Below, in pieces: positions 3,654 to 61,996 of a DNA stretch of 64,000 nt. Source of the stretch: a virus; IMG/VR virus record IMGVR_UViG_3300032087_004763, positions 1 to 64,000 of that record; one strand, given 5' to 3'. A program made the translations under genes and the position numbers. The notes below the pieces were generated by a model. That model was given only the letters and a program-made list of their open reading frames with translations. It was not told where the DNA came from and made no database searches. Positions within the stretch are counted from its first letter, which is position 1. Every line of letters starts with the position of its first letter.

Positions 3654-4296
3654 CTTTGTCCTCTCTGGTTTTCCAAAAATATTCGTCGGTATCTCCTAAT
3701 CGATAGGAGTACCCATTTTCAACTTGATAAAAGTCTGTGGATACTTTAAAGTCTGGCATCAGAGGTTCTTTCGGTGTTAGGCTATTATCGTACACACGCA
3801 TTCTATTATTAGGATACGCTGCATACTGACCGTTCTCTAATTCCAGTATGTTAAAGCTCTTATGTTCTTCTGGTATTTCTGATGTTGAATAGTCTATCTC
3901 ATCAGCTGCCGGATGATAGTTATCCAGAGTGAATAAGTATGTCGCTTTCAATATTTGGTGATCTCTTGTGAAGATCTCGAAATCCATCGATCCGATGAAT
4001 TGTTTATATATAGCAGTTACACCATAATCCATGCAATTCCAAAACTGCAAGTTATGTAATTCTAAGTCTGGTGTTGGTGTTTCTGGGTCAGTCACAAAAG
4101 CACTGATCGGTAACTTATCGTACAGTGCTCCATATTCTGGTAAGTATGTTTCAAAATAGAATGCCCTTCCTGGCATCGACTTTGCTGTTACCCAATGTCC
4201 TTCTACAAACTCACCATGACCCGACTGGTGATCCATCAAATATTCTTTTCTTACCCACACCTTGACGTTGGGTAGATTGCATAACAAATCTGACAT
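3640..4296 (-). CDS. conserved phage hypothetical protein between nrdA and nrdB
   Basis: 218-aa ORF coupled to both neighbours; no nuclease motif. Confidence 0.75.
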   Translation of the reverse strand: MSDLLCNLPNVKVWVRKEYLMDHQSGHGEFVEGHWVTAKSMPGRAFYFETYLPEYGALYDKLPISAFVTDPETPTPDLELHNLQFWNCMDYGVTAIYKQFIGSMDFEIFTRDHQILKATYLFTLDNYHPAADEIDYSTSEIPEEHKSFNILELENGQYAAYPNNRMRVYDNSLTPKEPLMPDFKVSTDFYQVENGYSYRLGDTDEYFWKTREDKDVIT

Positions 4297-6302
4297 TATC
4301 CCTCACAAGCTCTACATTCATCTGTTTCAATAGGTGGCAATCCACATGTGACGCCTTCATTTGCAGTATTCAAATACTCCATCAGTTCATCGTATCCACC
4401 GACGTACTGACCTTCAATATATATTTGTGGAACTGTCTTGACCTTTCGGCCAGTTACTTCTGCGGCAGTCTTGCCGATCTCTTCAAGAGAGACGTACTCA
4501 TAATGTATACCACGGATATCTAGCTCATCTTTTGCTGCAGCACAGAAAGGACAATCTTTCTTTCCGTAAACAAGAGTTCGCATATCATCCTGTAGTGCTA
4601 CTCTTTCAACCTTTTCTGATACATTCTCTGCTCGAGACTTCGCTTCCGTTCTGAGATAATAAAGTCCTTTAAGTTTTTCTTTCCATGCTTTGAGATGGAC
4701 TTGATTAACATAAGCTTTCTCAGCGCCGGCTGGGAAGAATAGATTGACGGACTGGCCCTGACAAATATACTTCTGCCTGTCAGCTGCATGCTGGACCACC
4801 CAGCTTTGATCCAACTCCTGGGCCGTCTTGAAGATCGCCTTCTCACCCTCAGTAAGTTCTGGTAGATGTTGGACCGAACCTTTGTTAGTAATGATTGATG
4901 TCCAGGTAGTTTCATTATTTATACCGTGAGCTTCAAGCACCGGCTCCAAATATTTATTTTTTACAAGATGCGACCCCGCACGAGTGCGATGTGTGTAGGC
5001 ATTAGCTTTGAGAGGTTCGATTGATGGTGAAGTTCCAACGATGAGACCGGAGGATGCATTAGGAGCGATAGCCAATAGGTGAGCGAAACGTAAGCCGGTA
5101 CCAAGTCCATCTGGATATTCTCCTCTTTCTAGCGCTAGTCGTTCAGACTGCGCAACTGCTTTAGTCTTAATTGTATTAAATACGACTTTATTGATCTCTT
5201 GAGCCTTCTCAGATTCCCACGCCACACCGTGTTTGTGGAGTAGTGAGTGGAAGCCCATTGCTCCCAGACCAATCGATCTCTCTCTTTGTGCAGAATAGCG
5301 AGCTCGCTCAATTTCATCTGGTGCATTTTCAATAAAATATTCAAGTACGTTGTCCAGCATCGTGACGAGATCTTCAATAATTGTGGTATTCTTCCACTCA
5401 TCGTAGAACTCAAGATTGAGAGATGATAGGCAACATACTGCTGTACGATCAGCAGAGGTAGGTAGATGTATCTCGTTACATAGATTTGAGCCATGAATCT
5501 TTAACCCCGCATCTTTTAGCGATTGAGGCATCTTTCGATTCGCCTCGTCGATAAAATTCAAATAAGGTTCGCCTGTGCGGAATCGAACCTCTATGATCCT
5601 TTCCCAAAGTTTACGAGCACTTACTGTCTCTGCAACTTCACCTTTACCAGGATCAATCAGATCCCAGTCTTTATTATCTATCACTGCTTGCATGAACGCA
5701 TCAGTAATATTGATTGCATTGTGTAGATTTAGTGCTTTACGTTGTACATCACCAGTCGGAATCCTCATATTAAGGAACTCTACGATATCTGGATGCGATA
5801 TATCCATGTATGCAGCATACGAACCCTTTCTTGTCTTACCCTGACGATAGGCAATCATGTCTGCATCAACCGTATGCAAGAAAGGAATCGGTCCTGGTGC
5901 TTTATCTGATACAGTTCTTACGTCAGACCAATGGCCGCCGACGCCACCACCCAGGACTGATAACCACCGAAGCTCAGAACTATGACTAATAAGGCCATCA
6001 AGAGTATCAGGCACATAAGTGAGAAAACACGAAATGGGTAGTCCCTTATCTGATGCAACACCGTTTGGAGCATTAGACAAAACAGGGCTAGCAAACATAA
6101 ACCACTTGTTACTAACATAATCATAAAGGCGTTTAGCAAGATCTCCATCCATCTCTCCTTTATAAGTTGACCATGCTTTGGCTGCACGAGCGTAAGCTTC
6201 TTGTGGTGAAGTTTCATGTCCGCGCATATAAAAGTCTTTGAGCATACCTATCGCATAGCTAGTCAATAGGTCATCTCTGTTCTTATCAATTTTTATTGAC
6301 AT
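4296..6302 (-). CDS. nrdA: class I ribonucleotide reductase alpha subunit with fused glutaredoxin domain
   Basis: SPVLSN, LPISCF, GSNLCNEI, AIAPNASS, LYYLR; Grx CPFC/TVPQI/GGYDEL; C-terminal ECRACEG. Confidence 0.96.
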   Translation of the reverse strand: MSIKIDKNRDDLLTSYAIGMLKDFYMRGHETSPQEAYARAAKAWSTYKGEMDGDLAKRLYDYVSNKWFMFASPVLSNAPNGVASDKGLPISCFLTYVPDTLDGLISHSSELRWLSVLGGGVGGHWSDVRTVSDKAPGPIPFLHTVDADMIAYRQGKTRKGSYAAYMDISHPDIVEFLNMRIPTGDVQRKALNLHNAINITDAFMQAVIDNKDWDLIDPGKGEVAETVSARKLWERIIEVRFRTGEPYLNFIDEANRKMPQSLKDAGLKIHGSNLCNEIHLPTSADRTAVCCLSSLNLEFYDEWKNTTIIEDLVTMLDNVLEYFIENAPDEIERARYSAQRERSIGLGAMGFHSLLHKHGVAWESEKAQEINKVVFNTIKTKAVAQSERLALERGEYPDGLGTGLRFAHLLAIAPNASSGLIVGTSPSIEPLKANAYTHRTRAGSHLVKNKYLEPVLEAHGINNETTWTSIITNKGSVQHLPELTEGEKAIFKTAQELDQSWVVQHAADRQKYICQGQSVNLFFPAGAEKAYVNQVHLKAWKEKLKGLYYLRTEAKSRAENVSEKVERVALQDDMRTLVYGKKDCPFCAAAKDELDIRGIHYEYVSLEEIGKTAAEVTGRKVKTVPQIYIEGQYVGGYDELMEYLNTANEGVTCGLPPIETDECRACEG

Positions 6303-9863: not shown

Positions 9864-10178
9864 TTACCATTTTACCTTATCTGCCCAATAAGCAGCTGAC
9901 ATCTTGCCTTTAGCAATGTTTTTACCGTGGCGTGCTTTAAATGATGCACGCTTCTTCTTCATTCTCTCTGACTCACCCTTCTTGGGATCACCAGCAGTTT
10001 CAGCTCCTTGTTGACCGAACCGAATTGTTTTTACCTTATCACCCGACTTAGCAACCACGATGTGACTCTTTGTAGGATGACTAGGTGTACGCTTTGCTTT
10101 ATTAAAACCAGTTACACCGGCTCTTGCAAGACGTGGATCTTTTTCTTCGAAGAACTGCTTAAACTTAACCAAACTCAT
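9864..10178 (-). CDS. basic putative internal head protein
   Basis: Start MSLVKFKQFFEE (capsid-targeting-like); KTIRFGQQG...RASFKARH..SAAYWA. Confidence 0.75.
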   Translation of the reverse strand: MSLVKFKQFFEEKDPRLARAGVTGFNKAKRTPSHPTKSHIVVAKSGDKVKTIRFGQQGAETAGDPKKGESERMKKKRASFKARHGKNIAKGKMSAAYWADKVKW

Positions 10179-10935
10179 GTCCAGCAATCCTTCTCATCTG
10201 TTTGTTGAACTCAGCTTGACCTGGTTTATTTTTGTACAACTTCTTAGTTAGACTACTGTTCTTCTTTCCTTTGATTCTCCAGTTGAATCCTTTCTTTTTA
10301 TGTTCTGGGTCAGTAGTTTTTACAAGTCTTCTCTTATACTGAGCTTCGTATGACTCTGGTCCTTTCGGTGCATCAGTACTACCACGAGTTCCTTCTGACA
10401 TACCTTTACTTTTGCAATAATCTCTTGCTGTATCAATATAATCCGTGGCCTTTGTGATCTTTGACTGAACCCACTCAGGCATATTTTCATCATCGTCAAG
10501 CATATCGTGTAATTCTTGTGCAGCATCGATCATAGTTCTTAACTTTGTCTTTGCCATCTCACCTTCTTGGTCATATTCATTAGGATCTTTATTTTCGTTT
10601 TGGCCTGGTGTCATCTTCTTTGCGTGCTTTCTCGCATCATCAGTTCCTTCATCAGGGAGATAGTTTTCAACAGCGAGATGCTTTGGCATCTGACCTTTCT
10701 TTATCATGTCGTTCAGTGTATCCACTAAAAGATTTCCATCTCTTGGTGAAAGACCCATCATCTTTACAACCTGTTGAACACCTTGTCTACCTTTGCCAGG
10801 ATTCTTCTTTCTCCAATCAAGGTACATGCGAACCATACTTTTTAGCTTTGGTTTCATAGCAATTTTATGAAGCCACTGTGGGATCATAGCTGATGATCCA
10901 GTCGTGGTTTCTGTAAAATCCTTGAATCTCTTCAT
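10165..10935 (-). CDS. modular putative internal head protein
   Basis: Start MKRFKDFTE; EGEMAK..LHDMLDDDENMPEWVQSKITKATDY module. Confidence 0.75.
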   Translation of the reverse strand: MKRFKDFTETTTGSSAMIPQWLHKIAMKPKLKSMVRMYLDWRKKNPGKGRQGVQQVVKMMGLSPRDGNLLVDTLNDMIKKGQMPKHLAVENYLPDEGTDDARKHAKKMTPGQNENKDPNEYDQEGEMAKTKLRTMIDAAQELHDMLDDDENMPEWVQSKITKATDYIDTARDYCKSKGMSEGTRGSTDAPKGPESYEAQYKRRLVKTTDPEHKKKGFNWRIKGKKNSSLTKKLYKNKPGQAEFNKQMRRIAGHEFG

Positions 10936-12125
10936 TTTTTAGCCCTAGTAATACCAGCCATACGGTTTCTTTGCTTACGTCTATAATACTTCTCAGCATC
11001 TTTGGCACCCATTTCTCTTGCAATATCTGCAGAGAACTGTTGGTGACCGTAGTCAGACTTTGCTTTATCATGATAGCGTTGTTTCAAATCCTGTGAGATC
11101 TCACCTAGCTTCTTTGGACGACCCTTCATCATATGAAGTTTTCCGTGTCTATCACGATCAGCCTTCTCTTTGTCTTGACGTGCCTTCTGTAAAGGTGACA
11201 TCATTCTCTGTGCCTGGCTACCGTATGCAGCTTCTTTCTGCAGTTGTGGTAGTCCAAACTGACTATTTGGTACTGGCTCAGACTTAGGCTCTGAATGCTT
11301 CTTCATTGGTACAAGTTTTTTACCATCCTTACTAGGAACAACTGAGGCTTCGGTTCTGAGCGATGCACGAGCTACTGGATTACCCATATTACCTTTAGCA
11401 GCGTCTGGACCAAATCCCTTTAATTTCACTTTATTATCTTGCTTAGCAAGTCTTTTTCTCCGTGCAGCATTTCGAGCATCATCATCCTTATTAGGATTTC
11501 CGTGATAGGTCACAGCTTCGTCCATCTCACGGCCCTGAGCCTTATTACGGAAAGCTTTTCTTACTTCCATGTCAGTGTGTCTCTCGACACTCTTAATCAT
11601 AGAAGGCTGCTTAACAATCTTACGAAGCTTCGCCATAATCTCTGCAGTAGACTTGCCAGTCATAAACGTAGGTGGCAGTCCTTCGACATCAACTTTGTAC
11701 TGTACAGCTTCATTTGTTGGCTTTTCGTGAGTATATCCCATCTTAGCATATTTGTTATGATCCGCAGGAGTTTTTGCTGTCACTTCTTTGCCTGTCTTAG
11801 GATCATACATCATATGAGGATACTTTGCAGCTTCGGTAGCAGGCACTTTAGCTCTAGAGCCAGCACCCACTTTCTTATCAAGTTTTGCTCTGGCCATCTG
11901 CAGACCCTTTGCTCTCTTGTTTGCAGTCTTAGTCGCAGCCCGCTTAGCTTCTTTATCTCCACGAGCAAATGCATCAGCACTTGCCTTAGCAGCTTTCTCA
12001 AGAGATCCTGCAGCGCCTGATTTTTTTAGCTTACCTTTATTATCTACAGATAAGCCAATGTAATTAGTAAGCTTTTTAGCAGATACTTCATCTAATTTTG
12101 CTCTGAGCTCTTTTAGTTTTTTCAT
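10932..12125 (-). CDS. basic polyprotein-like putative internal head protein
   Basis: Start MKKLKELRAKLDE; modules separated by xxE|A junctions. Confidence 0.75.
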   Translation of the reverse strand: MKKLKELRAKLDEVSAKKLTNYIGLSVDNKGKLKKSGAAGSLEKAAKASADAFARGDKEAKRAATKTANKRAKGLQMARAKLDKKVGAGSRAKVPATEAAKYPHMMYDPKTGKEVTAKTPADHNKYAKMGYTHEKPTNEAVQYKVDVEGLPPTFMTGKSTAEIMAKLRKIVKQPSMIKSVERHTDMEVRKAFRNKAQGREMDEAVTYHGNPNKDDDARNAARRKRLAKQDNKVKLKGFGPDAAKGNMGNPVARASLRTEASVVPSKDGKKLVPMKKHSEPKSEPVPNSQFGLPQLQKEAAYGSQAQRMMSPLQKARQDKEKADRDRHGKLHMMKGRPKKLGEISQDLKQRYHDKAKSDYGHQQFSADIAREMGAKDAEKYYRRKQRNRMAGITRAKK

Positions 12126-13351
12126 CCTGGAAGCTTCCCATTTTTTCTTCTATTCTTAAGTGTAGTACTTACAGCATCTGCAGCGTCTCTAGGGCTCATA
12201 CCTCTTTTCGTTGCTGCATTATAAGCTCTACCTGGAACAAGAACACCTCGTCCATAGTTCTGCTTAACAGCCTTTGGATCTTGCTTAGCATGCGCAGCAT
12301 CCTTTTCAGCTGCGCGCTTCTTCATATAAGCTTGAACCGCAGGTGACTTTGATGTAGCAAACTTCAGATGATCTCTAAACTTTTGATCAAATGACTTTGC
12401 TTCGCCCATCAAGTCTTTGTCTTTCGCCATCGCTCGCTTGGCATCACGCTCAGCTTTCTTCTTTTCTTTATTGATCTTCTCACCGGCTTTTCTAATCATG
12501 GCAAGACGCTCTGGTGTGCCAGCTTCTTTTGTAAGTCTATCTGTAGCCCTTGCAATACCCTTCTGTCTCTTTACAGACTTCACATAATCTTTACCAGACT
12601 GGTCAGGATTACTCATTGCTTTCTGTGCTGCGCTGTATGCCAAGCCTGCAGCAGATTGTGCTGCTTTAGGAATATAGCTACCGATCGTACTCTTCTTGAG
12701 TTCATCAACTTGAACTGCTTCTTTAAATTCACCCTTCTTAACTTTGTCCATAACTTGCTTGGCAAGATTAGTTGCAGTTGCGTGATCGATTTTCATATTC
12801 TTCTTAAGTGCTTCAATACCATGATTCATACTTTTAGTAGGTTTCATGATTTCATAAGCCCTTTTTGCAATAATATTTTCGCCAAGGTTTGTACTTTTTT
12901 TAGCATAATCAGGTGCTCGTTTAACAGGGCCATATGATGGTGACTTTACTTTGGAAGCTCTTTCACGCTCCCTCGCGAGATCTTGTCTTTCACGCTCTCT
13001 CCGCTTTGCAATTAAGTCTGATTGCGCCTGAAACTTATCTGGAGTCATCTCATCAACAGGCTGTGCATCACGAGCCCTCTTTGCAAGAGTTGTCGCGCGA
13101 GACATCGGAGACTGTTTAGTTCCGTCACTGTTCTTCACATTCTTAATTGGTTTCGCTCCCTTACCAATTACTTTTTCAACGTCTTTTGTTGGAAGAAGTG
13201 CTTCTTGCACAGATTCGTTCTTTGCAGACATGTAAGCAGCAATCGCCATATCACGGCGTTTTTCAGCTGACTTGCCGTCGAATTTAGGATTGTCAGATTT
13301 TTTAAAATCATCAATCCAGGTTTTAATTCCGTCTTTTACTGATAATGGCAT
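12122..13351 (-). CDS. basic polyprotein-like putative internal head protein
   Basis: Junctions VQE|A, VDE|M, LGE|N, FKE|A, VDE|L, TKE|A, MGE|A. Confidence 0.75.
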   Translation of the reverse strand: MPLSVKDGIKTWIDDFKKSDNPKFDGKSAEKRRDMAIAAYMSAKNESVQEALLPTKDVEKVIGKGAKPIKNVKNSDGTKQSPMSRATTLAKRARDAQPVDEMTPDKFQAQSDLIAKRRERERQDLARERERASKVKSPSYGPVKRAPDYAKKSTNLGENIIAKRAYEIMKPTKSMNHGIEALKKNMKIDHATATNLAKQVMDKVKKGEFKEAVQVDELKKSTIGSYIPKAAQSAAGLAYSAAQKAMSNPDQSGKDYVKSVKRQKGIARATDRLTKEAGTPERLAMIRKAGEKINKEKKKAERDAKRAMAKDKDLMGEAKSFDQKFRDHLKFATSKSPAVQAYMKKRAAEKDAAHAKQDPKAVKQNYGRGVLVPGRAYNAATKRGMSPRDAADAVSTTLKNRRKNGKLPG

Positions 13352-13590
13352 TATGCTAGATCCTTATCGTGATTGAGTCCACCTTTCTTTTTCTTCACAA
13401 TGAATGCATTGACTCTTGCATGTCCCCATTGTGATGGAGTTGTGCCAGGTCTGTGACCTGTTTTCCAAGCTGCAACACCGCGGTTGTAAACCTTACGAAG
13501 TGTTCCAACTGAGATTCCTGATTTCTTTGACTTATCGGCCAGAGACTTACCAGCCTTATCTTCTTCAATGTATTGTTGAAATTTAATCAT
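13351..13590 (-). CDS. small basic protein (DUF5824-like), putative internal head protein
   Basis: Start MIKFQQYIEE; SGISVGTLRKVYNRGVAAWKTGHRPGTTPSQWGHARVN. Confidence 0.75.
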   Translation of the reverse strand: MIKFQQYIEEDKAGKSLADKSKKSGISVGTLRKVYNRGVAAWKTGHRPGTTPSQWGHARVNAFIVKKKKGGLNHDKDLA

Positions 13591-14828
13591 GCGCTGGTAG
13601 TCCTTCTGTTAATCTTTCTAGTTCTAAGTGTTCTAGCTCTATCTAATATTGAATCATGACGCTTCTTATCTGCCGCATCTCTTCTTCTCTCAATTTCTTT
13701 TTCACGTGATATTGTAGCACGTGCTTGGTCAACTGTTTGTTCACCGTACATGTCTTTGAAAGCCTTAGTGTATTTACTTGGCTTTGTCTTAGCACCTTTA
13801 TCACCTGGTGCTGGCTTATAGGCTGATGGGTCATCATCACGCTTTTTACCGTGCTTCTTAAAATGAGCGTCTCGCTTTGTCTTAGTCGACTTAGCTAAGC
13901 CTCTATGATAAGCTGCAGGTTGAGATCCTTTACGATCTTTAATATCTGAATCTTGTGGAGTAGATTGCTCACTTAATGATTCCATTACAGAATATTCACG
14001 CTTATTAGGTTCTACTGGTTCGATCGCATCTAACCACTTACGATAAACATTTCCAGATCCTTCAACTATAATGTAGTTTGAACCAAGAGACTTAACTTTA
14101 GCTAGCTCACCGGTTTCCTTTATCGCGACTACATCACCGACATTAAACAACTTACCATTAACATATGACTCACGAATTTCTGATACAGGTTCTAGTTGAA
14201 CATGTTTTGCATATTCTTTTGTTTCTTTCAGTCCCATGCCTTTACGAACCATATTGTAAATGGCTTTTGTCTCTGCGTTCGACACATTCCGTGGAACACC
14301 TTGACTAAATTTTGTAAAGTCACCAGCTGAAGCGGCAGCTCTCATCTTCGAGGCTGACATACCTTCTACACCTTCGGCATCTGGATCTCGATCACCAGCA
14401 GACACGACATTGATTCTACTGAAGTTATAGAATCCGTGACGACCTTTCTGACCATTATACTTCTCGAGGAGTGTACTAAACTCTCTTACTCGATCTGATC
14501 CGACGACCATCACAAGAGTCTTATAGCCTTCTTTGTATAACTCAGATGCTGCATTCATTGCATTCTTTACGTTGTTATTCACCATCACGGATCTCGCATG
14601 CTTTGGAAACATCTTGCGGATAGCTTTGATTTTATCCTTGTATGCAAGAGGATTCTTCTTTGCGTCTTGTGATTGTGATACAAAAATTCTATATGGGTTT
14701 CTACCTGCCTTCGCAGCTAAAGCATTAAAGAGTTTTTCATGACCTGTAGTAGGAGGATTCATTCTACCAAATGTAAAGTAGACTGACTTTTCCTCTTCAA
14801 CAAGAAAGCTCTTAAACGAATTAATCAC
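13587..14828 (-). CDS. cytidyltransferase-like (HIGH superfamily) nucleotidyltransferase with basic C-terminal modules
   Basis: FTFGRMNPPTTGHEKL, VVGSDR, MSASKMR; start MINSFKSFLVEE. Confidence 0.85.
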   Translation of the reverse strand: MINSFKSFLVEEEKSVYFTFGRMNPPTTGHEKLFNALAAKAGRNPYRIFVSQSQDAKKNPLAYKDKIKAIRKMFPKHARSVMVNNNVKNAMNAASELYKEGYKTLVMVVGSDRVREFSTLLEKYNGQKGRHGFYNFSRINVVSAGDRDPDAEGVEGMSASKMRAAASAGDFTKFSQGVPRNVSNAETKAIYNMVRKGMGLKETKEYAKHVQLEPVSEIRESYVNGKLFNVGDVVAIKETGELAKVKSLGSNYIIVEGSGNVYRKWLDAIEPVEPNKREYSVMESLSEQSTPQDSDIKDRKGSQPAAYHRGLAKSTKTKRDAHFKKHGKKRDDDPSAYKPAPGDKGAKTKPSKYTKAFKDMYGEQTVDQARATISREKEIERRRDAADKKRHDSILDRARTLRTRKINRRTTSA

Positions 14829-15368
14829 TTACTTTCTTCCTCGTTTCTTCGCTAACTCAGCCTGACGAACTTTCGGGAAAGCTCTTCGAGCGAGCATATC
14901 AATTCTTTTCTTGATAGCAGGCTTCTCTAATCTCTTTTCTATCTCTTGACGACGAGCATACGTTAGTTCGCTCTTTGGAATGTCTTTCGTGAATTTTTTC
15001 ATAAAGGCTAAGCGAACTTGCCTTCTGGTTCTCTTCATTAATTTTTCTTTTGATGCAATTCTGCGCTTAGCTATCTCTCGACCACGTTTAATTTTAAACT
15101 TGATTTTTTTCATTTGGCGCTTGCGTTGCATACGCTGCTGGACGGTAAGAGCTTCTTCCATGTCGGTTGACTCTGAGTATGTTGCTGTATCGCTTCCAAC
15201 ATCGTGGACTTTACGTCTTCTATAGGCACGATAGTTAGTTAACTCATCTTCACCAGGGCGGTATTGAGTAACATGAAGATCATTGAATGAGAGCTTAGGG
15301 CGATCGAATGGATGAGGCTGGCCATCCATTTCGAGTATATCTTTAAAACGCAGTAACTTGTCTGCCAT
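14829..15368 (-). CDS. Arg/Lys-rich protein, putative internal head protein
   Basis: Start MADKLLRFKDILE; MEE|ALTVQQRMQRKR followed by a highly basic domain. Confidence 0.75.
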   Translation of the reverse strand: MADKLLRFKDILEMDGQPHPFDRPKLSFNDLHVTQYRPGEDELTNYRAYRRRKVHDVGSDTATYSESTDMEEALTVQQRMQRKRQMKKIKFKIKRGREIAKRRIASKEKLMKRTRRQVRLAFMKKFTKDIPKSELTYARRQEIEKRLEKPAIKKRIDMLARRAFPKVRQAELAKKRGRK

Positions 15369-15397
15369 ATCTTCCTCTGGTTTTTCCCATCTATATA

Positions 15398-16624
15398 CTA
15401 CGAACGGCGTGACGTTTGCCAGCCTTTCAAAATATCGGGGCTAAAGTTGGCGTATGAAAATTCCATACGATCAACAATCTTAACCGCATCACCACCAAGT
15501 TGATCAATGGCTACAAAGCCTTCTGATCCTGTGGTCTTGTAACCGTTCTTTGTTTTTAGAAACGTTGATATTTTATTAAAACGGTCTAATATATTTATCA
15601 GTTTTAGTTTCGCCAGAATGATAACTTTTTGCAAATCGAATATTTTTTTCAAAGAAGCTTGATTCTTGGCTGAGAAGAAATCTAATATTTCTTTTAACGC
15701 TTTCTGCTGAGTAGCTTTCCCAGCTGGAGTCGTTCTCTTATCGATTTCTTTTTGGTATTTACCTTTGATCCAGGTAATGAGTTTTCTCGTGTGCGCTCGA
15801 GTGTCATTAACAACTGTGCCTGCTCGTACGTAGGTGTTGTTAAATTGCTCAATGTGTTGTGCAAGTTTTTGATTCGATTCGAGCTCCCTAAGAGTCGAAC
15901 CTGCGATTTGGTTAAATAGCACCCCAGCTTGTTTAAGATAGCCATTTACTTCCTCCGTGTCTTTTGAAGACATCGTATAGGAAGTCATGTCTCGTAACAT
16001 GGCGTCTTGTGACCATACATTTGTTGTTGTTTTAAATTTCGAGACATCTACTCCATACGATGCTTTGAGTGTTTCGAATGTCCTACCACTATAGGAGGTA
16101 TGCCATACAACTCCTATCTTGGCTTTTTTGATTTGTTTTGCCATTTCCGTATCTGCCGGTACCGCATAGACGATCGTGTTAGGATGGAAAGTAACATAGG
16201 ATTTTCCTTTGATTTTCTTAGTTTGTATATCGTCGCTTGAGAATAGAAAATCGCCTTGAACCACACCTCGTATGCCAAGAGCCGGCAAATAAGCCAAAGC
16301 TTGCTTAAGCTTTGCATTTAAATCTCCACTTGTGTCCGCATCAATGTCTGCGTCAGTTTTGTATACCTTCGGATTTTTGTTGAAGATACCTTTCTTCGCT
16401 ACAAAAAATTCGCCATCACGAGGATCGGTACCAGCAAAAATAGCAGGAGCTCCATCCCATTTAACAGATACTCTACCATCGTGTTCTCCTGCAAATGTAT
16501 CTCGAAGCGATCGTAATGCTAGAATCGCTTCACGTGTACCATTGACTCCACCATAGAGAACCTTATCCTCGATGTGGGTCATATGTGTATTCTTTTGTTC
16601 TGTTATATAATCTCTAAAATACAT
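15398..16624 (-). CDS. ATP-dependent ligase-like covalent nucleotidyltransferase (DUF6267-like)
   Basis: Motifs in ligase order: SVKWDG (I), VQGDFLF (III), SEGFV (IV), AVKIV (V); start MYFRDYITE. Confidence 0.65.
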   Translation of the reverse strand: MYFRDYITEQKNTHMTHIEDKVLYGGVNGTREAILALRSLRDTFAGEHDGRVSVKWDGAPAIFAGTDPRDGEFFVAKKGIFNKNPKVYKTDADIDADTSGDLNAKLKQALAYLPALGIRGVVQGDFLFSSDDIQTKKIKGKSYVTFHPNTIVYAVPADTEMAKQIKKAKIGVVWHTSYSGRTFETLKASYGVDVSKFKTTTNVWSQDAMLRDMTSYTMSSKDTEEVNGYLKQAGVLFNQIAGSTLRELESNQKLAQHIEQFNNTYVRAGTVVNDTRAHTRKLITWIKGKYQKEIDKRTTPAGKATQQKALKEILDFFSAKNQASLKKIFDLQKVIILAKLKLINILDRFNKISTFLKTKNGYKTTGSEGFVAIDQLGGDAVKIVDRMEFSYANFSPDILKGWQTSRRS

Positions 16625-16640
16625 GAATCTGGTCTACCAT

Positions 16641-17393
16641 CTAGTTCTCGATTAATATTATGTCAAATGATGATGAAATTGTTGATCCGGTTGATGCAAT
16701 TGCTCTTATTTCTATATCTGTTTTCGGCGGAAGTTCAATTGGAACTTTATAATCTCGTGTATGAAAACCACCAGGAACATCCATAATATCTCTTGTTCTA
16801 AATGCTCCAAGAACGTTTTCAACTTGTCTCGTAAATAGTGTTGCAGTTGCTGAAGAGTTATAAGCGCTAACTCCAACATTCCATTGAGTTAAATATCCAG
16901 TGCAGTGAGCTGGAATAGTATAAAGACCTAACATTGTTTGACCTAGACCATAAGTCGTACCAATTCCAATTGTACCGATATCAGCTAAGACTGTGCCACC
17001 GCCACCGGCTGCTGTTGATATTATTACATTACCTTCATTTGTACCAGTTGAACCTGCAGATGCAACAAACGCACGAAAGACTCTCAAAAATTCAGCAGTA
17101 CCTACAAGATTATTAACCGGCTGAGTTACATTAATTTCATTGTAATTTGCATCCAATCCTATAATCGTTACCGTTCGTGCTCCATTTCCAGTTGGGTTAT
17201 CATCTCCATCATTACTTGAAACAAAAACAGTTGATGGCGAAGTAAGGTAGGTATAAAGACCACCTTGTTGCCATATCGTTTCAGGAGCACCACCTACACT
17301 TGGATTACGTCCAAACTTATGAATATACGAGTATTTGTGGATTAAACCTTGCCCGATGTTTAAGTAATCATCTGATTCGAAATATTTAGACAT
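16641..17393 (-). CDS. hypothetical beta-rich protein, possibly virion-associated
   Basis: IHKFGRNPSVG..ETIWQQGG; G/T/V-rich, unlike its basic neighbours. Confidence 0.65.
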   Translation of the reverse strand: MSKYFESDDYLNIGQGLIHKYSYIHKFGRNPSVGGAPETIWQQGGLYTYLTSPSTVFVSSNDGDDNPTGNGARTVTIIGLDANYNEINVTQPVNNLVGTAEFLRVFRAFVASAGSTGTNEGNVIISTAAGGGGTVLADIGTIGIGTTYGLGQTMLGLYTIPAHCTGYLTQWNVGVSAYNSSATATLFTRQVENVLGAFRTRDIMDVPGGFHTRDYKVPIELPPKTDIEIRAIASTGSTISSSFDIILIEN

Positions 17394-18775
17394 TATGCTG
17401 CACTCACTTTGACGTATACTGATGAATCATCGAGTTTTGATCCTGCATAGTTAACCATGTAGGACATAAAATCGTCTTGTTGTTTTTTCTTTGCTGTATG
17501 TAAAGCATGTGCAATTGTTGTCACACCAAGCTTTGCATGAATTCTGTCAATAGTAGCCGTTGCTAATCCTGACTCAAACTCTTCCTCTGTAATTGATGAA
17601 TCGATTGCTTTTGCCTTCCTAAATAAATCTGGTGCTTTCTTTGTACGTAAAATTGTTCTCGCTTCAGTTTTTAGCTGAGCATTTGTTGGTAGCTTTACAT
17701 TTAAGAAAGTACTTGCAGCATATTCAAGTTGAGAGTAACCGGCTCTACCGCCACGTGCACCTTTCAGAATAATCTCCATATTTAGTGCGCCCATAGAACT
17801 TGGTGCTCTAATATCAGCCTTTTTTGTTTTGTCAAAGAATACATCTCCGCCCTTACCTGACCAAAATGTGGATTTTGCTTGTTCAGCTTTAACTCTTACA
17901 CGAGTAAAGACATGTCGGTCAAGTTCTTTCTTTTCCATATTTAGAACTTCATGCTTAGCCTTAGCTTCAAGCTTGTTGATTTGCTTAAGCGAAATACCTA
18001 CGATATCTCTTGATACAAAATTCTTTGCAAGCGAAGCATTTAATGTTTCGATTGATGTAGAATCTAAAGCTCTCTTTACATCTATACCAGATCTCACTGC
18101 CCAGATATCACCTGGATTCCACTTATCATCTGTTAGAACTGGCTTACCTGAATTCTTGAATGCTGTTTTCTTCATGGCATAAATCGCTTTCATAGTAATA
18201 GATCCACGATGAAATTTGTGTTGCTTCGTAACAAATCCTTCTTCGATAAGATGCTTTGCAGTTACATAGGCCGAGTAGTGCCATTCAGCTGCAGCCTTCA
18301 TCATTTTCTCGTACGAAACATCTGTTTCGATATTGTTAGCGTGTCCTTTTAGAAGCTCTGGTGTAAAATGCGGAAACTCTTTATTCTTTCCTTCGGCAAG
18401 CATTGCTTGTAGATATAAACATTGTAGAGACTCACCATCTGCTGTGTTACCAGTTGCTCCCGCACCTGCACCTTTACCACCAAAGACCGGTGATTTACCA
18501 ACCTGATTAGATTGAATAATAGTCCCATCTTCCAATTCTAGTGGAAATGATTTTGTGGCATCATCGCTTTTAATGAAGGCTTTTACTGAATTTATGTTTT
18601 GAGCAATATTCTTTACTTTTAAGTCTTTACCCATAGTATCGGTTACGGGATTTGTAGGACTTTGAATCACATCAATAAGAATATTGAGACGCTTGTCTCC
18701 ATACTTGAACCACTCGGCTCGAGACATTGGCTTGAACACGGTCTTCTCCAGTAAGAATGCTTTAAATCTGAGCAT
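17393..18775 (-). CDS. putative PD-(D/E)xK restriction-endonuclease-like protein with capsid-targeting N-terminus
   Basis: TADGES (E) ... DKWNPGDIW ... GISLKQ (SxK variant); start MLRFKAFLLE. Confidence 0.6.
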   Translation of the reverse strand: MLRFKAFLLEKTVFKPMSRAEWFKYGDKRLNILIDVIQSPTNPVTDTMGKDLKVKNIAQNINSVKAFIKSDDATKSFPLELEDGTIIQSNQVGKSPVFGGKGAGAGATGNTADGESLQCLYLQAMLAEGKNKEFPHFTPELLKGHANNIETDVSYEKMMKAAAEWHYSAYVTAKHLIEEGFVTKQHKFHRGSITMKAIYAMKKTAFKNSGKPVLTDDKWNPGDIWAVRSGIDVKRALDSTSIETLNASLAKNFVSRDIVGISLKQINKLEAKAKHEVLNMEKKELDRHVFTRVRVKAEQAKSTFWSGKGGDVFFDKTKKADIRAPSSMGALNMEIILKGARGGRAGYSQLEYAASTFLNVKLPTNAQLKTEARTILRTKKAPDLFRKAKAIDSSITEEEFESGLATATIDRIHAKLGVTTIAHALHTAKKKQQDDFMSYMVNYAGSKLDDSSVYVKVSAA

Positions 18776-18777
18776 AA

Positions 18778-18816
18778 AAATAGTACCACAATAAGTGTAT
18801 TATGGTACTATTTATA
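18778..18816 (-). promoter_or_regulatory. T4-type late promoter TATAAATA (18816-18809) overlapping a 16-bp hairpin
   Basis: AAATAGTACCATAATA-CACT-TATTGTGGTACTATTT immediately before the ATG at 18775. Confidence 0.8.
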
Positions 18817-21156: not shown

Positions 21157-22150
21157 CTATTCCTCTTCAATAGTGATTTTGTATTTTTGACCGTAAACAT
21201 CTTCGACTGAGATAGTTTTGGTCGTTGATAAAAGATAACCTTCCTCATGGAGGTCATACTTGATAGGACCCACGGATTTGATTGCATTCTTAAAGTCACC
21301 TTCAATCCACTGACGGATTGCGCTACGGCATATCGATGCTATACCATCACAATATTTCATTATACATTCTCCTTCAAAAACACGACGAACGCGTCGACAT
21401 AATCAATTGCAGTTGATCCGAGTTCTGGTACAAAAGCTGTGACCAGAACCCCTACAACAAATCCAATAATAAAATTCATTTTAAGCCCTCGCTAAAACTT
21501 CAGACGCATCGAAGACCGAGAAGAACCGTGGCTTTTTCTCACCAGTCTCTTCGTCTTCTTTGAACATAACAAGCTTAGCACAAGCCTTCAGACCTTTCAG
21601 TTTAGAACCAGGGATACCGAGTGACTTAACAGCCTGCTTGAAAGTTACAACAGAGTCAACGCCAGCCATCGCAAGCGTGGTTGCATTGACACCAGAATAC
21701 TCTTTTCCAGTTACATAGTTTTTCATAATTCTCTCCTCAATTCAATTTATGGTACCATTATACCATATAAGGAGAGAATGTACATACTTTTTTGGAAAGT
21801 TTTTTTGATAGGAATATCAATAACTTAGAGGATTATATTCCAGTTTTTGTCAGATCTAGAAATCCTTGACCACTTGCTACAATACATACCCAATTACGTG
21901 GCACATTCAACACGGTGAACGTCCAAGTCTGAGTGCTCGGATTCATCCATAACTGATGCATTAAATCTTCATCTAAGTGATTTACTGAATCTGATGCGAA
22001 TACGTTTGTTTCGCCATACCTTTCTTTCAATCCATTAAAAAAGTGCGTTGCCTCAAAGCACTGCATCGGAAGTGGTTGTTCTCTCATCTGAACTTCCGCA
22101 AAACTAGGAGCTGCCATCCATAACAACATGAGTATAATAAAATTTCTCAT
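21157..22150 (-). other. small early hypothetical ORFs (21157-21360, 21481-21726, 21833-22150)
   Basis: Co-oriented short ORFs with RBSs; 21833-22150 has a signal peptide. Confidence 0.6.
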
Positions 22151-22170
22151 CGTCGTATACCTTTTAGAGT

Positions 22171-22416
22171 GGCCCGTTGGATTACAAGGTGGGCCGAACC
22201 CCGTTTAGCCCTATGCGGCTAAAGCGTAAACGTCATCGTTTGCGTTTATTTTAGTTTTGGTTTTTGCGTCTTGCCTGACGATTCTCCACAAAGCCTTGAG
22301 CACCTGTCGAACCCAGGACATCCCCCCGAATACCACTCTTCCATGAATGATATTTGGTGGAGATGGAGGGAGTCGAACCCTCGTCCAGTTACCTATCTCT
22401 TTGCTTCAACGAATCC
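22171..22416 (-). ncRNA. ssrA: circularly permuted (two-piece) tmRNA
   Basis: T-arm GAGGG-TTCGACT-CCCTC and CATCTCC-A-CCA (ends 22355) precede the 5' acceptor strand GGGGATG (starts 22325, G3:U70); tag ANDDVYALAA* at 22243-22211; terminal GGCCC/GGGCC hairpin. Confidence 0.93.
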
Positions 22417-22640
22417 TATAGATCTGTTAAATGTTCTAACCATTCACCTGCTTCACCTTTTTCCGTGAACCAACGAATGATCGTCATTCCCGTTTGTATG
22501 TTATAAGCGAACATCTGGATTTGTGTTCCATATGTCGATGTCTTAATAAACCAATCATTCAACAAAGCGGGTTCGTATGACTCGAACTCACATTCATCTC
22601 GTGATGACCACGTATAATTCTCAGGGTTTTTTCCGTTCAT
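22416..22640 (-). CDS. hypothetical protein upstream of the tmRNA
   Basis: 74-aa ORF right behind the promoter at 22651-22678; probably near-leaderless. Confidence 0.55.
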   Translation of the reverse strand: MNGKNPENYTWSSRDECEFESYEPALLNDWFIKTSTYGTQIQMFAYNIQTGMTIIRWFTEKGEAGEWLEHLTDL

Positions 22641-61342: not shown

Positions 61343-61996
61343 TTATTTTGATTTGAGTAACGAGAGGAAATTTTTAAACTCACGAATCTGTACCTCATAG
61401 AGATCTTTTCGTGGAGCTTTCTTAATTTCAGTCTCCATTTGTTCAATACGTCTTGCTTCGATGATACCGTTATTCCAAACCCAATCAACACCTTCCATAA
61501 CTCCATTAACAAAAGCATTTGGTGCAGATGGATCTTGAACGATATCGACAGCGTTGAGCATGAAGTCTTTACCGACCATCATGGCATCGCCACCTCTTTG
61601 CAGACTTCCCATACCACGAGTTGAAACGCCAACCCTAACCCCGCCATCGAGAAGACCTTCAACGATCTTACCCATAGGAGTTGCCAGTATTGTCGCTTTT
61701 CCAACAACATCGTTCCCCTTCCAATTAAGAGAATCGATCTTGTGAGAAACTTTATCTAGGTTGATCGTTGGTCCCTCAGGATGATTGAGTTCACCAACAG
61801 CTCTACCTTTTGAAACTTGTTCGTCAATATATTTGTTAACCGCAGACTCCATGACTTCTTTTGGATAGATTCTGCCGTTCCGGTTCTTTTGCTCTGCTGA
61901 AGCAAAAATACCTTCAATAGCATAACTCTTCTTACCGTCTTTCGCTTCGACGATACATTCGATGTCTTGGTCGGTATATTCTGCGATCAGTTTCAT
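61343..61996 (-). CDS. 21: prohead protease gp21
   Basis: MKLIAE, NRNGRIYP, GELNHP, GVSTRGMGSL, DPSAPNAFV. Confidence 0.96.
   Translation of the reverse strand: MKLIAEYTDQDIECIVEAKDGKKSYAIEGIFASAEQKNRNGRIYPKEVMESAVNKYIDEQVSKGRAVGELNHPEGPTINLDKVSHKIDSLNWKGNDVVGKATILATPMGKIVEGLLDGGVRVGVSTRGMGSLQRGGDAMMVGKDFMLNAVDIVQDPSAPNAFVNGVMEGVDWVWNNGIIEARRIEQMETEIKKAPRKDLYEVQIREFKNFLSLLKSK

Follow-up and report, generated by a model that had tools for sequence, protein, structure and literature searches.

A DUF6267 protein of a marine T4-like phage is a candidate capsid-targeted, RNA-ligase-like nucleotidyltransferase

The internal head proteins of phage T4 are often non-enzymatic, and we know of no ligase-like enzyme among them. 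In one of these proteins, IPIII, the first ten residues suffice for packaging, with positions 4 and 7 controlling targeting and positions 8 and 10 controlling processing, and the propeptides of IPII and IPIII are identical (PMC9026906). Here we analyze a gene whose product appears to combine a leader of this type with the architecture of an RNA ligase. The gene is located in the first 64,000 nucleotides (64 kb; the window) of IMG/VR record IMGVR_UViG_3300032087_004763, a 142-kb sequence from an uncultured marine T4-like myovirus with an estimated completeness of 84%. Other genes in the window encode DNA polymerase, UvsX, the gp41 helicase, a gp46-like nuclease, NrdA, and the gp21 protease. The predicted structure makes it very probable that the protein adopts the fold of the ligase superfamily. 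Our preferred reading, which we offer tentatively, is that of a lysine-adenylylating, RNA-ligase-like enzyme that is loaded into the capsid.

15398..16624, minus strand: DUF6267 gene with ATG start, encoding a ligase-superfamily nucleotidyltransferase-like protein of 408 residues (open reading frame list, Pfam, phrog_455, and AlphaFold2 model)

Within its family, which is known but has received no study, the gene is unexceptional. Its product matches Pfam family DUF6267 (PF19782) with an E-value of 3.2e-101 and 339.8 bits (the cut-off is 27), and the match spans residues 12–395 and positions 1–373 of the 376 in the profile, as in a full-length member; the protein also belongs to phrog_455. Among sequenced phages, the nearest is Phage C48C1 (Kyanoviridae), with an orthologue that shares 63% sequence identity. 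A word-indexed search returned at least 8,000 DUF6267 relatives at E ≤ 0.001, and 2,564 clusters (formed at 50% identity) match our protein at this threshold. DUF6267 is present in 465 phage records, nearly all of them from T4-like phages of Synechococcus, Prochlorococcus, Pelagibacter, and Methylophilales, together with Stenotrophomonas phage DLP6. In the cyanophage literature the family is known as "T4-like gene cluster 71" of cyanomyoviruses, and cluster 71 occupies the same genome position as our gene (after gp41/MazG and beside a cytidylyltransferase). A literature search found no paper naming DUF6267 or PF19782.

A preliminary description, made from the DNA letters and their translations, had noted that KWDG, VQGDFLF, SEGFV, and AVKIV follow one another in the order of ligase motifs I, III, IV, and V, with a long helical insert ahead of motif IV. 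Translation confirms the positions of all four strings, and each contains residues that are invariant in the family; DSSP analysis of the AlphaFold2 model likewise places a helical insert (residues 216–349) before SEGFV. We aligned 65 relatives sharing 34–62% sequence identity with our protein and found Lys-55, Asp-57, Gly-58, Lys-78, Gly-124, Asp-125, Asn-149, Tyr-153, His-175, Thr-176, Glu-368, Gly-369, and Lys-382 to be invariant and Arg-386 nearly so. In a wider set of 246 full-length DUF6267 domains, K.DG is found in 245, xGD in 244, and EG in 233. The motif strings are thus more than chance. The order of elements along the protein, from the N terminus, is as follows.

16487..16594, minus strand: N-terminal helix with an H14..H17-x-E-D signature, preceding the nucleotidyltransferase core (His-17 invariant, His-14 nearly so; helix 18–44 in the model)
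16451..16462, minus strand: motif I, KWDG, residues 55–58, at the end of strand 51–55 and followed by a hairpin; Lys-55 is the predicted nucleotidyl acceptor
16391..16393, minus strand: Lys-78, an invariant lysine 23 residues past motif I and a putative counterpart of T4 Rnl1 Lys-119
16238..16264, minus strand: motif III strand VVQGDFLFS (VQGDFLF is 122–128), located on strand 121–129; Gly-124 and Asp-125 invariant
16166..16189, minus strand: candidate motif IIIa, FHPNTIVY, an aromatic/Asn strand; Asn-149 and Tyr-153 invariant, Phe-146, Pro-148, and Thr-150 nearly so
15578..15979, minus strand: basic six-helix insert, residues 216–349, between motifs IIIa and IV; a probable substrate-binding module
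15509..15526, minus strand: motif IV, SEGFVA (SEGFV is 367–371), on strand 369–373; Glu-368 and Gly-369 invariant
15467..15487, minus strand: motif V, AVKIVDR (AVKIV is 380–384); Lys-382 invariant, and Arg-386 two residues past the usual place of the second lysine

The AlphaFold2 model has a mean predicted local distance difference test score (pLDDT) of 93.1 and a predicted template modeling score of 0.90. The residues that carry the motifs are located on β-strands, as they are in ligases: a KxDG motif I is followed, in the expected order and each on a strand, by motifs III, IIIa, IV, and V, with deviations in motifs III and V. The chain continues for about 25 residues beyond motif V, and no oligonucleotide-binding (OB) fold is present in the model. 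Of the 50 entries listed in a structure comparison, 18 are ligases, and the remainder are helical bundles that match the insert. The best ligase matches are RNA ligases (Z-score and aligned residues are given for each).

Naegleria NgrRnl (5cot): 7.8, 186 residues (root mean square deviation 4.0)
Trypanosoma brucei REL1: 7.7, 195 residues
Fungal Trl1 ligase domain: 7.6, 198 residues
T4 Rnl2: 7.5, 175 residues
T4 Rnl1: 7.2, 174 residues
Archaeal and DNA ligases: 5.3–6.6, 150–194 residues

DNA ligases thus score 1.5–2.5 Z units lower than RNA ligases. The structural alignments extend from before motif I to 10–13 residues past Lys-382. We take the corresponding motif V lysines to be Lys-326 in NgrRnl, Lys-225/Lys-227 in Rnl2, and Lys-240 in Rnl1, following the published numbering. 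On these ranges and this numbering, the alignments stop equally far beyond the motif V lysine in our protein and in NgrRnl, Rnl2, and Rnl1, which suggests that the register fits. In a library of viral models, the first matches beyond the family members include annotated phage RNA ligases. A Foldseek search of the PDB with the full model gave no significant match. The structure and profile checks that the preliminary description had proposed for its ligase-superfamily reading have therefore come out in part: the predicted fold places the protein in the superfamily of covalent nucleotidyltransferases shared by ligases and capping enzymes, with RNA ligases as the best matches, whereas neither Foldseek against the PDB nor profile alignment returned anything significant and no sequence link to a named ligase family emerged.

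The insert was also modeled on its own and again forms six helices (pLDDT 97.3). It carries a net charge of +10 (the family mean is +6), and Arg-267 and Lys-339 are conserved at 97–98%. Searched alone, it gave no distinctive structural match and no significant Foldseek match in the PDB. We considered a YqeY-like tRNA-binding domain and rejected it, as the resemblance is no better than that of generic helical matches.

DUF6267 resembles the ligase families in shape and is a member of none of them. The protein has no match to PF09511, the family of Rnl1 and Trl1, and weak matches to Pfam RNA_lig_T4_1 occur in 4 of the 65 relatives (best E-value 6e-4). PF09414 (Rnl2/REL1/Rnl5), PF01068, and PF01653 have no match anywhere in the phage record. 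A search of NCBIfam returned no meaningful match, and a search of the ESM Atlas only unnamed viral clusters. Local phmmer/hmmsearch comparison produced a single short, non-significant alignment with Rnl1 over motifs IV–V, which pairs motif IV with Glu-227–Gly-228 of Rnl1.

We built family alignments of Rnl1 and Rnl2 from 25 and 14 IMG/VR homologues, respectively. The invariant residues of the Rnl1 family are collinear with those of our protein and similarly spaced. K99-x-D-G of T4 Rnl1 corresponds to K55-x-D-G; K117-S-K119, 20 residues past motif I, corresponds to Lys-77–Lys-78, 23 residues past it and in a similar local sequence; Glu-159 corresponds to Asp-125 and Glu-227–Gly-228 to Glu-368–Gly-369; and Lys-240, 13 residues past the glutamate, corresponds to Lys-382, 14 residues past its own. 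Unlike T4 Rnl1 (gp63) and fungal Trl1, our protein lacks a C-terminal helical tRNA-specificity domain, and all its sequence matches to them are below threshold. No sequence similarity is detectable to the Rnl2-type and Rnl5 ligases (T4 Rnl2, REL1, NgrRnl). These carry their extra domain at either end, whereas that of our protein interrupts the catalytic domain at a point between motifs IIIa and IV; the motif III aspartate and the KxxxR of motif V are further differences. Compared with ATP-dependent DNA ligases (T4 gp30, Chlorella virus ligase, LigI/III/IV), our protein is devoid of the OB domain, of motif VI, and of a PF01068 match.

Many cyanophages (S-RIM2, ACG-2014a/b/d, S-IOM18, and others) encode a shorter, distant relative that aligns only to residues ∼10–298, with 25–30% identity, and that appears to lack motifs IV and V. 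In the 295-residue gp87 of S-CREM2, the match is confined to residues 13–174.

The first nine residues of the protein, MYFRDYITE, had been read in the preliminary description as a capsid-targeting leader, and this assignment finds support. Phe-3, Tyr-6, Ile-7, and Glu-9 match Tyr-4, Phe-7, Ile-8, and Glu-10 of T4 IPII/IPIII, a gp21-type protease is encoded in the genome, and a late-promoter motif is located upstream of the gene. In the T4 genome, MKTYQEFIAE opens two genes 697 bp apart, at ∼65.7–66.4 kb, which we take to be ipII and ipIII, in agreement with the identity of their propeptides. About two-thirds of the 65 aligned relatives share the consensus MxxFxx(F/Y)(L/I)xE, which is in exact T4 register. 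In the model, residues 1–10 have pLDDT values below 50. Throughout the 142-kb record, the leader pattern opens real genes only in the block 9864–18775, with ∼0.012 occurrences expected per gene.

16598..16624, minus strand: leader MYFRDYITE, a putative T4-type capsid-targeting and gp21-processing sequence with a predicted cut after Glu-9 (translation, family consensus)
9864..10187: gene with the leader pattern after an internal methionine of the listed open reading frame
13351..13590, minus strand: leader-pattern gene of 79 residues (MIKFQQYIEE), overlapping the stop of the nucleotidyltransferase gene that follows in this list
13587..14828, minus strand: HIGH-superfamily (cytidylyltransferase-like) nucleotidyltransferase with DUF5824, leader MINSFKSFLVE, two genes downstream of the DUF6267 gene
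17393..18775, minus strand: leader-pattern gene of 460 residues (MLRFKAFLLE; phrog_1462) at the head of the late row
18809..18816, minus strand: T4-type late-promoter motif TATAAATA, just upstream of the closely spaced row of minus-strand genes to which the DUF6267 gene belongs
61343..61996, minus strand: gp21-type prohead protease (Peptidase_S77, E-value 6.3e-40), the enzyme expected to remove the leader

The motif TATAAATA has 10 matches in the window compared with 3.5 expected. Scans for σ70 promoters and terminators between 9.5 and 19.5 kb gave the same counts as shuffled sequence. The product of 17393..18775 is 28% identical over 171 residues to ORF90 of S-SCSM1, which is annotated "virion protein," as are all of ORF89–93. 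Our locus thus shares with T4 IPI–III and Alt the leader positions (shifted by one), a gp21 gene, and an upstream late-promoter motif; it differs in that its cargo would be a ligase-like enzyme and in its leader being one residue shorter. Late expression is also indicated by phage P-HM2, where the orthologue PHM2_162 and the next two cytidyltransferase genes belong to the Late (D) class; PHM2_161, just before PHM2_162, is Late in the light and Middle in the dark, and PHM2_160, further upstream, is Middle (Thompson 2016, S2 Table).

Virion data are available for some relatives. The cytidylyltransferase neighbor was detected in virions of S-SZBM1, S-SCSM1, S-CREM2, and S-SM1, in the last with 25 peptides. 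The cytidylyltransferases of S-SZBM1 and S-SCSM1 begin with the leader. DUF6267 itself carries it in our phage, C48C1, DLP6, and Melnitz, has a degenerate form of it in HTVC008M, and lacks it in S-SZBM1, P-HM2, S-CRM01, and S-PM2. The list of 30 proteins reported from the S-SZBM1 virion does not include the untagged DUF6267 protein of that phage (S-SZBM1_141), and no DUF6267 gene is detectable in the syntenic mazG–nrdA interval of S-SCSM1. A putative protein kinase was found in S-CRM01 virions, as stated in the S-CREM2 paper; we take it to be g130, which is located two genes downstream of the S-CRM01 DUF6267 gene and begins with the leader. In the few available cases, presence of the leader therefore tracks detection in the virion, the tagged proteins detected there all being neighbors of DUF6267 rather than DUF6267 itself. 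Overall, we regard packaging of the tagged form of our protein as plausible, and as slightly better than an even prospect.

DUF6267 always adjoins a HIGH-superfamily nucleotidyltransferase with DUF5824, or is fused to it in either order. The published annotation of this partner is NMNAT-like; our searches assigned it to neither NMNAT nor any other subfamily. We know of no role for a HIGH-superfamily nucleotidyltransferase in T4-type tRNA repair. The preliminary description had suggested that our protein could reseal tRNA or tmRNA cut by anticodon nucleases, a speculative role for which our results offer no direct support. The closest long relatives of our protein (61–64% identity; P0271–P0273 and P0121) carry an N-terminal Zeta_toxin/AAA_33 P-loop kinase, and the P0271 cluster alone has 344 member sequences. 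The best-scoring families for the fused kinase are Zeta_toxin and AAA_33, both of which have small-molecule kinases among their members. In HTVC008M, a homologous kinase is encoded by a separate neighboring gene (L091, 6742–7404) with the leader-like start MIPFILKEG.

The junctions of these fusions share a common feature. Among the 44 N-terminally extended forms, 43 have an (L/I/V/M/F)-x-E motif no more than 14 residues before the start of the domain, against a background of 19.5%, and the junction motif is often a complete leader-like sequence, hydrophobic-x-x-hydrophobic-(L/I)-x-E (P0121, P0126, P0201, P0240, P0276, P0281, P0125, P0284, and others). Because the junctions carry this protease-type motif, their sequences suggest that the DUF6267 fusions are cargo polyproteins that would be cut by the prohead protease, which supports the idea that the leader is processed. 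In our phage, the product of 13351..13590 is a detached C-terminal part of DUF5824 and of phrog_3041 (profile positions 599–673), and this split of DUF5824 resembles the module boundaries of the fused polyproteins. In the RefSeq genome of S-PM2 (NC_006820; L001, 5992–7771), DUF6267 is divided, one part being annotated as p141 and the other as the beginning of the "cytidyltransferase" p142. The re-sequenced S-PM2 genome has DUF6267 unbroken (LN828717, 93494–94687), with UniProt entry A0A0M6VVW4 being a 591-residue DUF6267–cytidyltransferase fusion, and the division in RefSeq is probably a sequencing or annotation artifact.

From these data we infer catalysis, substrate, packaging, and biological target as follows. 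The protein would be a divergent covalent lysine nucleotidyltransferase with the architecture of an OB-less RNA ligase. Lys-55 of KWDG may attack the α-phosphate of ATP to form an enzyme-AMP adduct, in a nucleotide pocket that would be lined by Asp-57/Gly-58, Lys-78, Asp-125, Glu-368/Gly-369, and Lys-382/Arg-386. The basic insert (residues 216–349), placed where other RNA ligases have their appended domain, could hold the polynucleotide. AMP would then be passed to a 5′-phosphate end, which would be joined to a 3′-OH. Polynucleotide ligase activity of this kind is plausible, with the balance tipping slightly in its favor. We favor RNA over DNA as the substrate, with low certainty, because DLP6 and S-CRM01 have a canonical ligase in addition to DUF6267, the P-HM2 orthologue is late, an OB domain is absent, and RNA ligases are the better structural matches. 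Made late, the protein would enter the prohead by way of its first nine residues, a putative T4-type capsid-targeting sequence; the gp21 protease would trim it after Glu-9; and it would reach the next host along with the DNA, presumably accompanied by the co-tagged HIGH-superfamily nucleotidyltransferase.

Several observations weigh against this reading. Neither phmmer nor a profile of the 65 sequences found anything relevant among all PDB sequences, and when T4 Rnl1 and Rnl2 were compared by hhalign, either singly or as family alignments, the probabilities stayed below 1% (0.5% for the Rnl1 and 0.4% for the Rnl2 family alignment). Motif III has Asp-125 where ligases carry a glutamate, and the second lysine of motif V is missing, with KxxxR in place of KxK. 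The constant partner is a nucleotidyltransferase of the small-molecule type, and tblastn with the kinase domains found no homologue of the fused kinase in the genome record, a search that did not extend to other polynucleotide kinases or 3′-phosphatases. Relative to the T4 register, our leader is short by one residue. DUF6267 proteins are absent from the S-SZBM1 proteome, from the parts of Table S8 of Sullivan 2010 that were covered, and from the S-SCSM1 annotation, and the phages with proteomes carry untagged forms. Cyanophage DUF6267 proteins are untagged yet late-expressed, so virion delivery is not intrinsic to the function of the family. The points on packaging would all fit the same ligase-like enzyme acting unpackaged, in the cytoplasm late in infection, with the N-terminal pattern a relic or serving another purpose: the P-HM2, S-CRM01, S-SZBM1, and S-PM2 orthologues are entirely leaderless, that of P-HM2 is nevertheless late, the accessible virion proteomes show no DUF6267, and our leader is out of T4 register by one. 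We consider this unlikely, since the leader is kept in about two-thirds of a diverse family sample, is restricted in our genome to one late cluster, and marks the junctions of 43 of the 44 extended forms, and since leader-bearing neighbors were found in virions, with the untagged DUF6267 of S-SZBM1 not reported from the virion of that phage.

The deviations in motifs III and V from the ligase consensus, together with the invariable proximity or fusion to a HIGH-superfamily transferase that other authors annotate as NMNAT-like and with the Zeta_toxin/AAA_33 affinities of the fused kinase, would also suit a nucleotidyltransferase that does not join polynucleotides. Such an enzyme would act with its HIGH partner, and in sister lineages with the kinase, in a small-molecule or protein-modifying pathway, for example a NAD-linked one. 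We think this improbable: every one of the closest structural matches is a polynucleotide ligase, the insert has the strong positive charge and the conserved arginine and lysine expected for nucleic acid binding, and the partner is not assignable to NMNAT or another subfamily. The argument from fusion to a shared pathway is weakened by the protease-type (L/I/V)xE motifs at nearly all junctions, in view of which the fusions may reflect co-packaging instead. A third reading makes the protein a DNA ligase, which would either stand in for the gp30 that is "missing" from cyanophage-like T4 relatives or be packaged to seal nicks in the genome once it is injected. That cyanomyoviruses lack a gp30 homologue has been noted before and is puzzling (PMC2984593), the record of our phage has no PF01068, PF01653, or PF09414 ligase, neither a PF01068 nor a PF01653 ligase is present in S-PM2, HTVC008M, or Melnitz, and the gene adjoins a replication module of DNA polymerase, UvsX, and gp41. 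We nevertheless downgraded this idea, which now seems quite improbable, because DLP6 and S-CRM01 hold DUF6267 next to a canonical PF01068 DNA ligase and because the P-HM2 orthologue is late, whereas a replication gene would be expected to be early or middle; PHM2_160, upstream of the block, is Middle. The lack of an OB domain in the model and the lower Z-scores of DNA ligases point the same way. Finally, the activity of our protein is predicted, and a catalytically dead internal protein that retains a ligase-like shape would resemble the non-enzymatic internal proteins of T4. The residues of the catalytic motifs are, however, invariant over hundreds of clusters, down to ∼34% identity, which is unexpected without catalysis and makes this reading hardly credible.

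With the lysine-adenylylating, capsid-loaded enzyme as our preferred reading, what would be new is the assignment of DUF6267 as an insert-bearing, capsid-tagged, RNA-ligase-like enzyme; the family itself was already known. Few uncharacterized gene families are as common in marine T4-like phages, and its carriers include phages that infect Prochlorococcus, Synechococcus, SAR11, and methylotrophs. In its broadest form, the proposal would be that DUF6267 represents a new and very abundant oceanic RNA ligase family with a polynucleotide-binding domain inside the catalytic domain, preloaded into the capsids of T4-like phages that infect heterotrophs, together with the HIGH-superfamily nucleotidyltransferase and, in some phages, a kinase, to form a ready kit for repairing or modifying nucleic acids from the moment of DNA entry. 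This wider picture is possible, though we are doubtful of it as a whole. If it were true, DUF6267 would provide the first known case of a ligase among injected internal proteins of the T4 type. Should the protein be an active ligase, the RNA ligases would gain a family with a new domain arrangement, a gene beside the replication genes of most sequenced cyanomyoviruses would acquire a testable function, and a new ligase scaffold might find practical use. Should the tagged forms be injected, phage heads would deliver nucleotide-transfer enzymes besides inhibitors (IPI) and an ADP-ribosyltransferase (Alt), which bears on how phages survive RNA- or NAD-targeting defenses in the first minutes of infection.

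Two further features of the window were recorded.

22120..22447, minus strand: permuted transfer-messenger RNA (tmRNA) gene with the tag peptide ANDDVYALAA, the sole tRNA-like gene of the window (ARAGORN)
4296..6302, minus strand: NrdA large subunit

Residues 557–651 of this NrdA match a thioredoxin-domain PHROG, which points to a fused redoxin domain near the C terminus.

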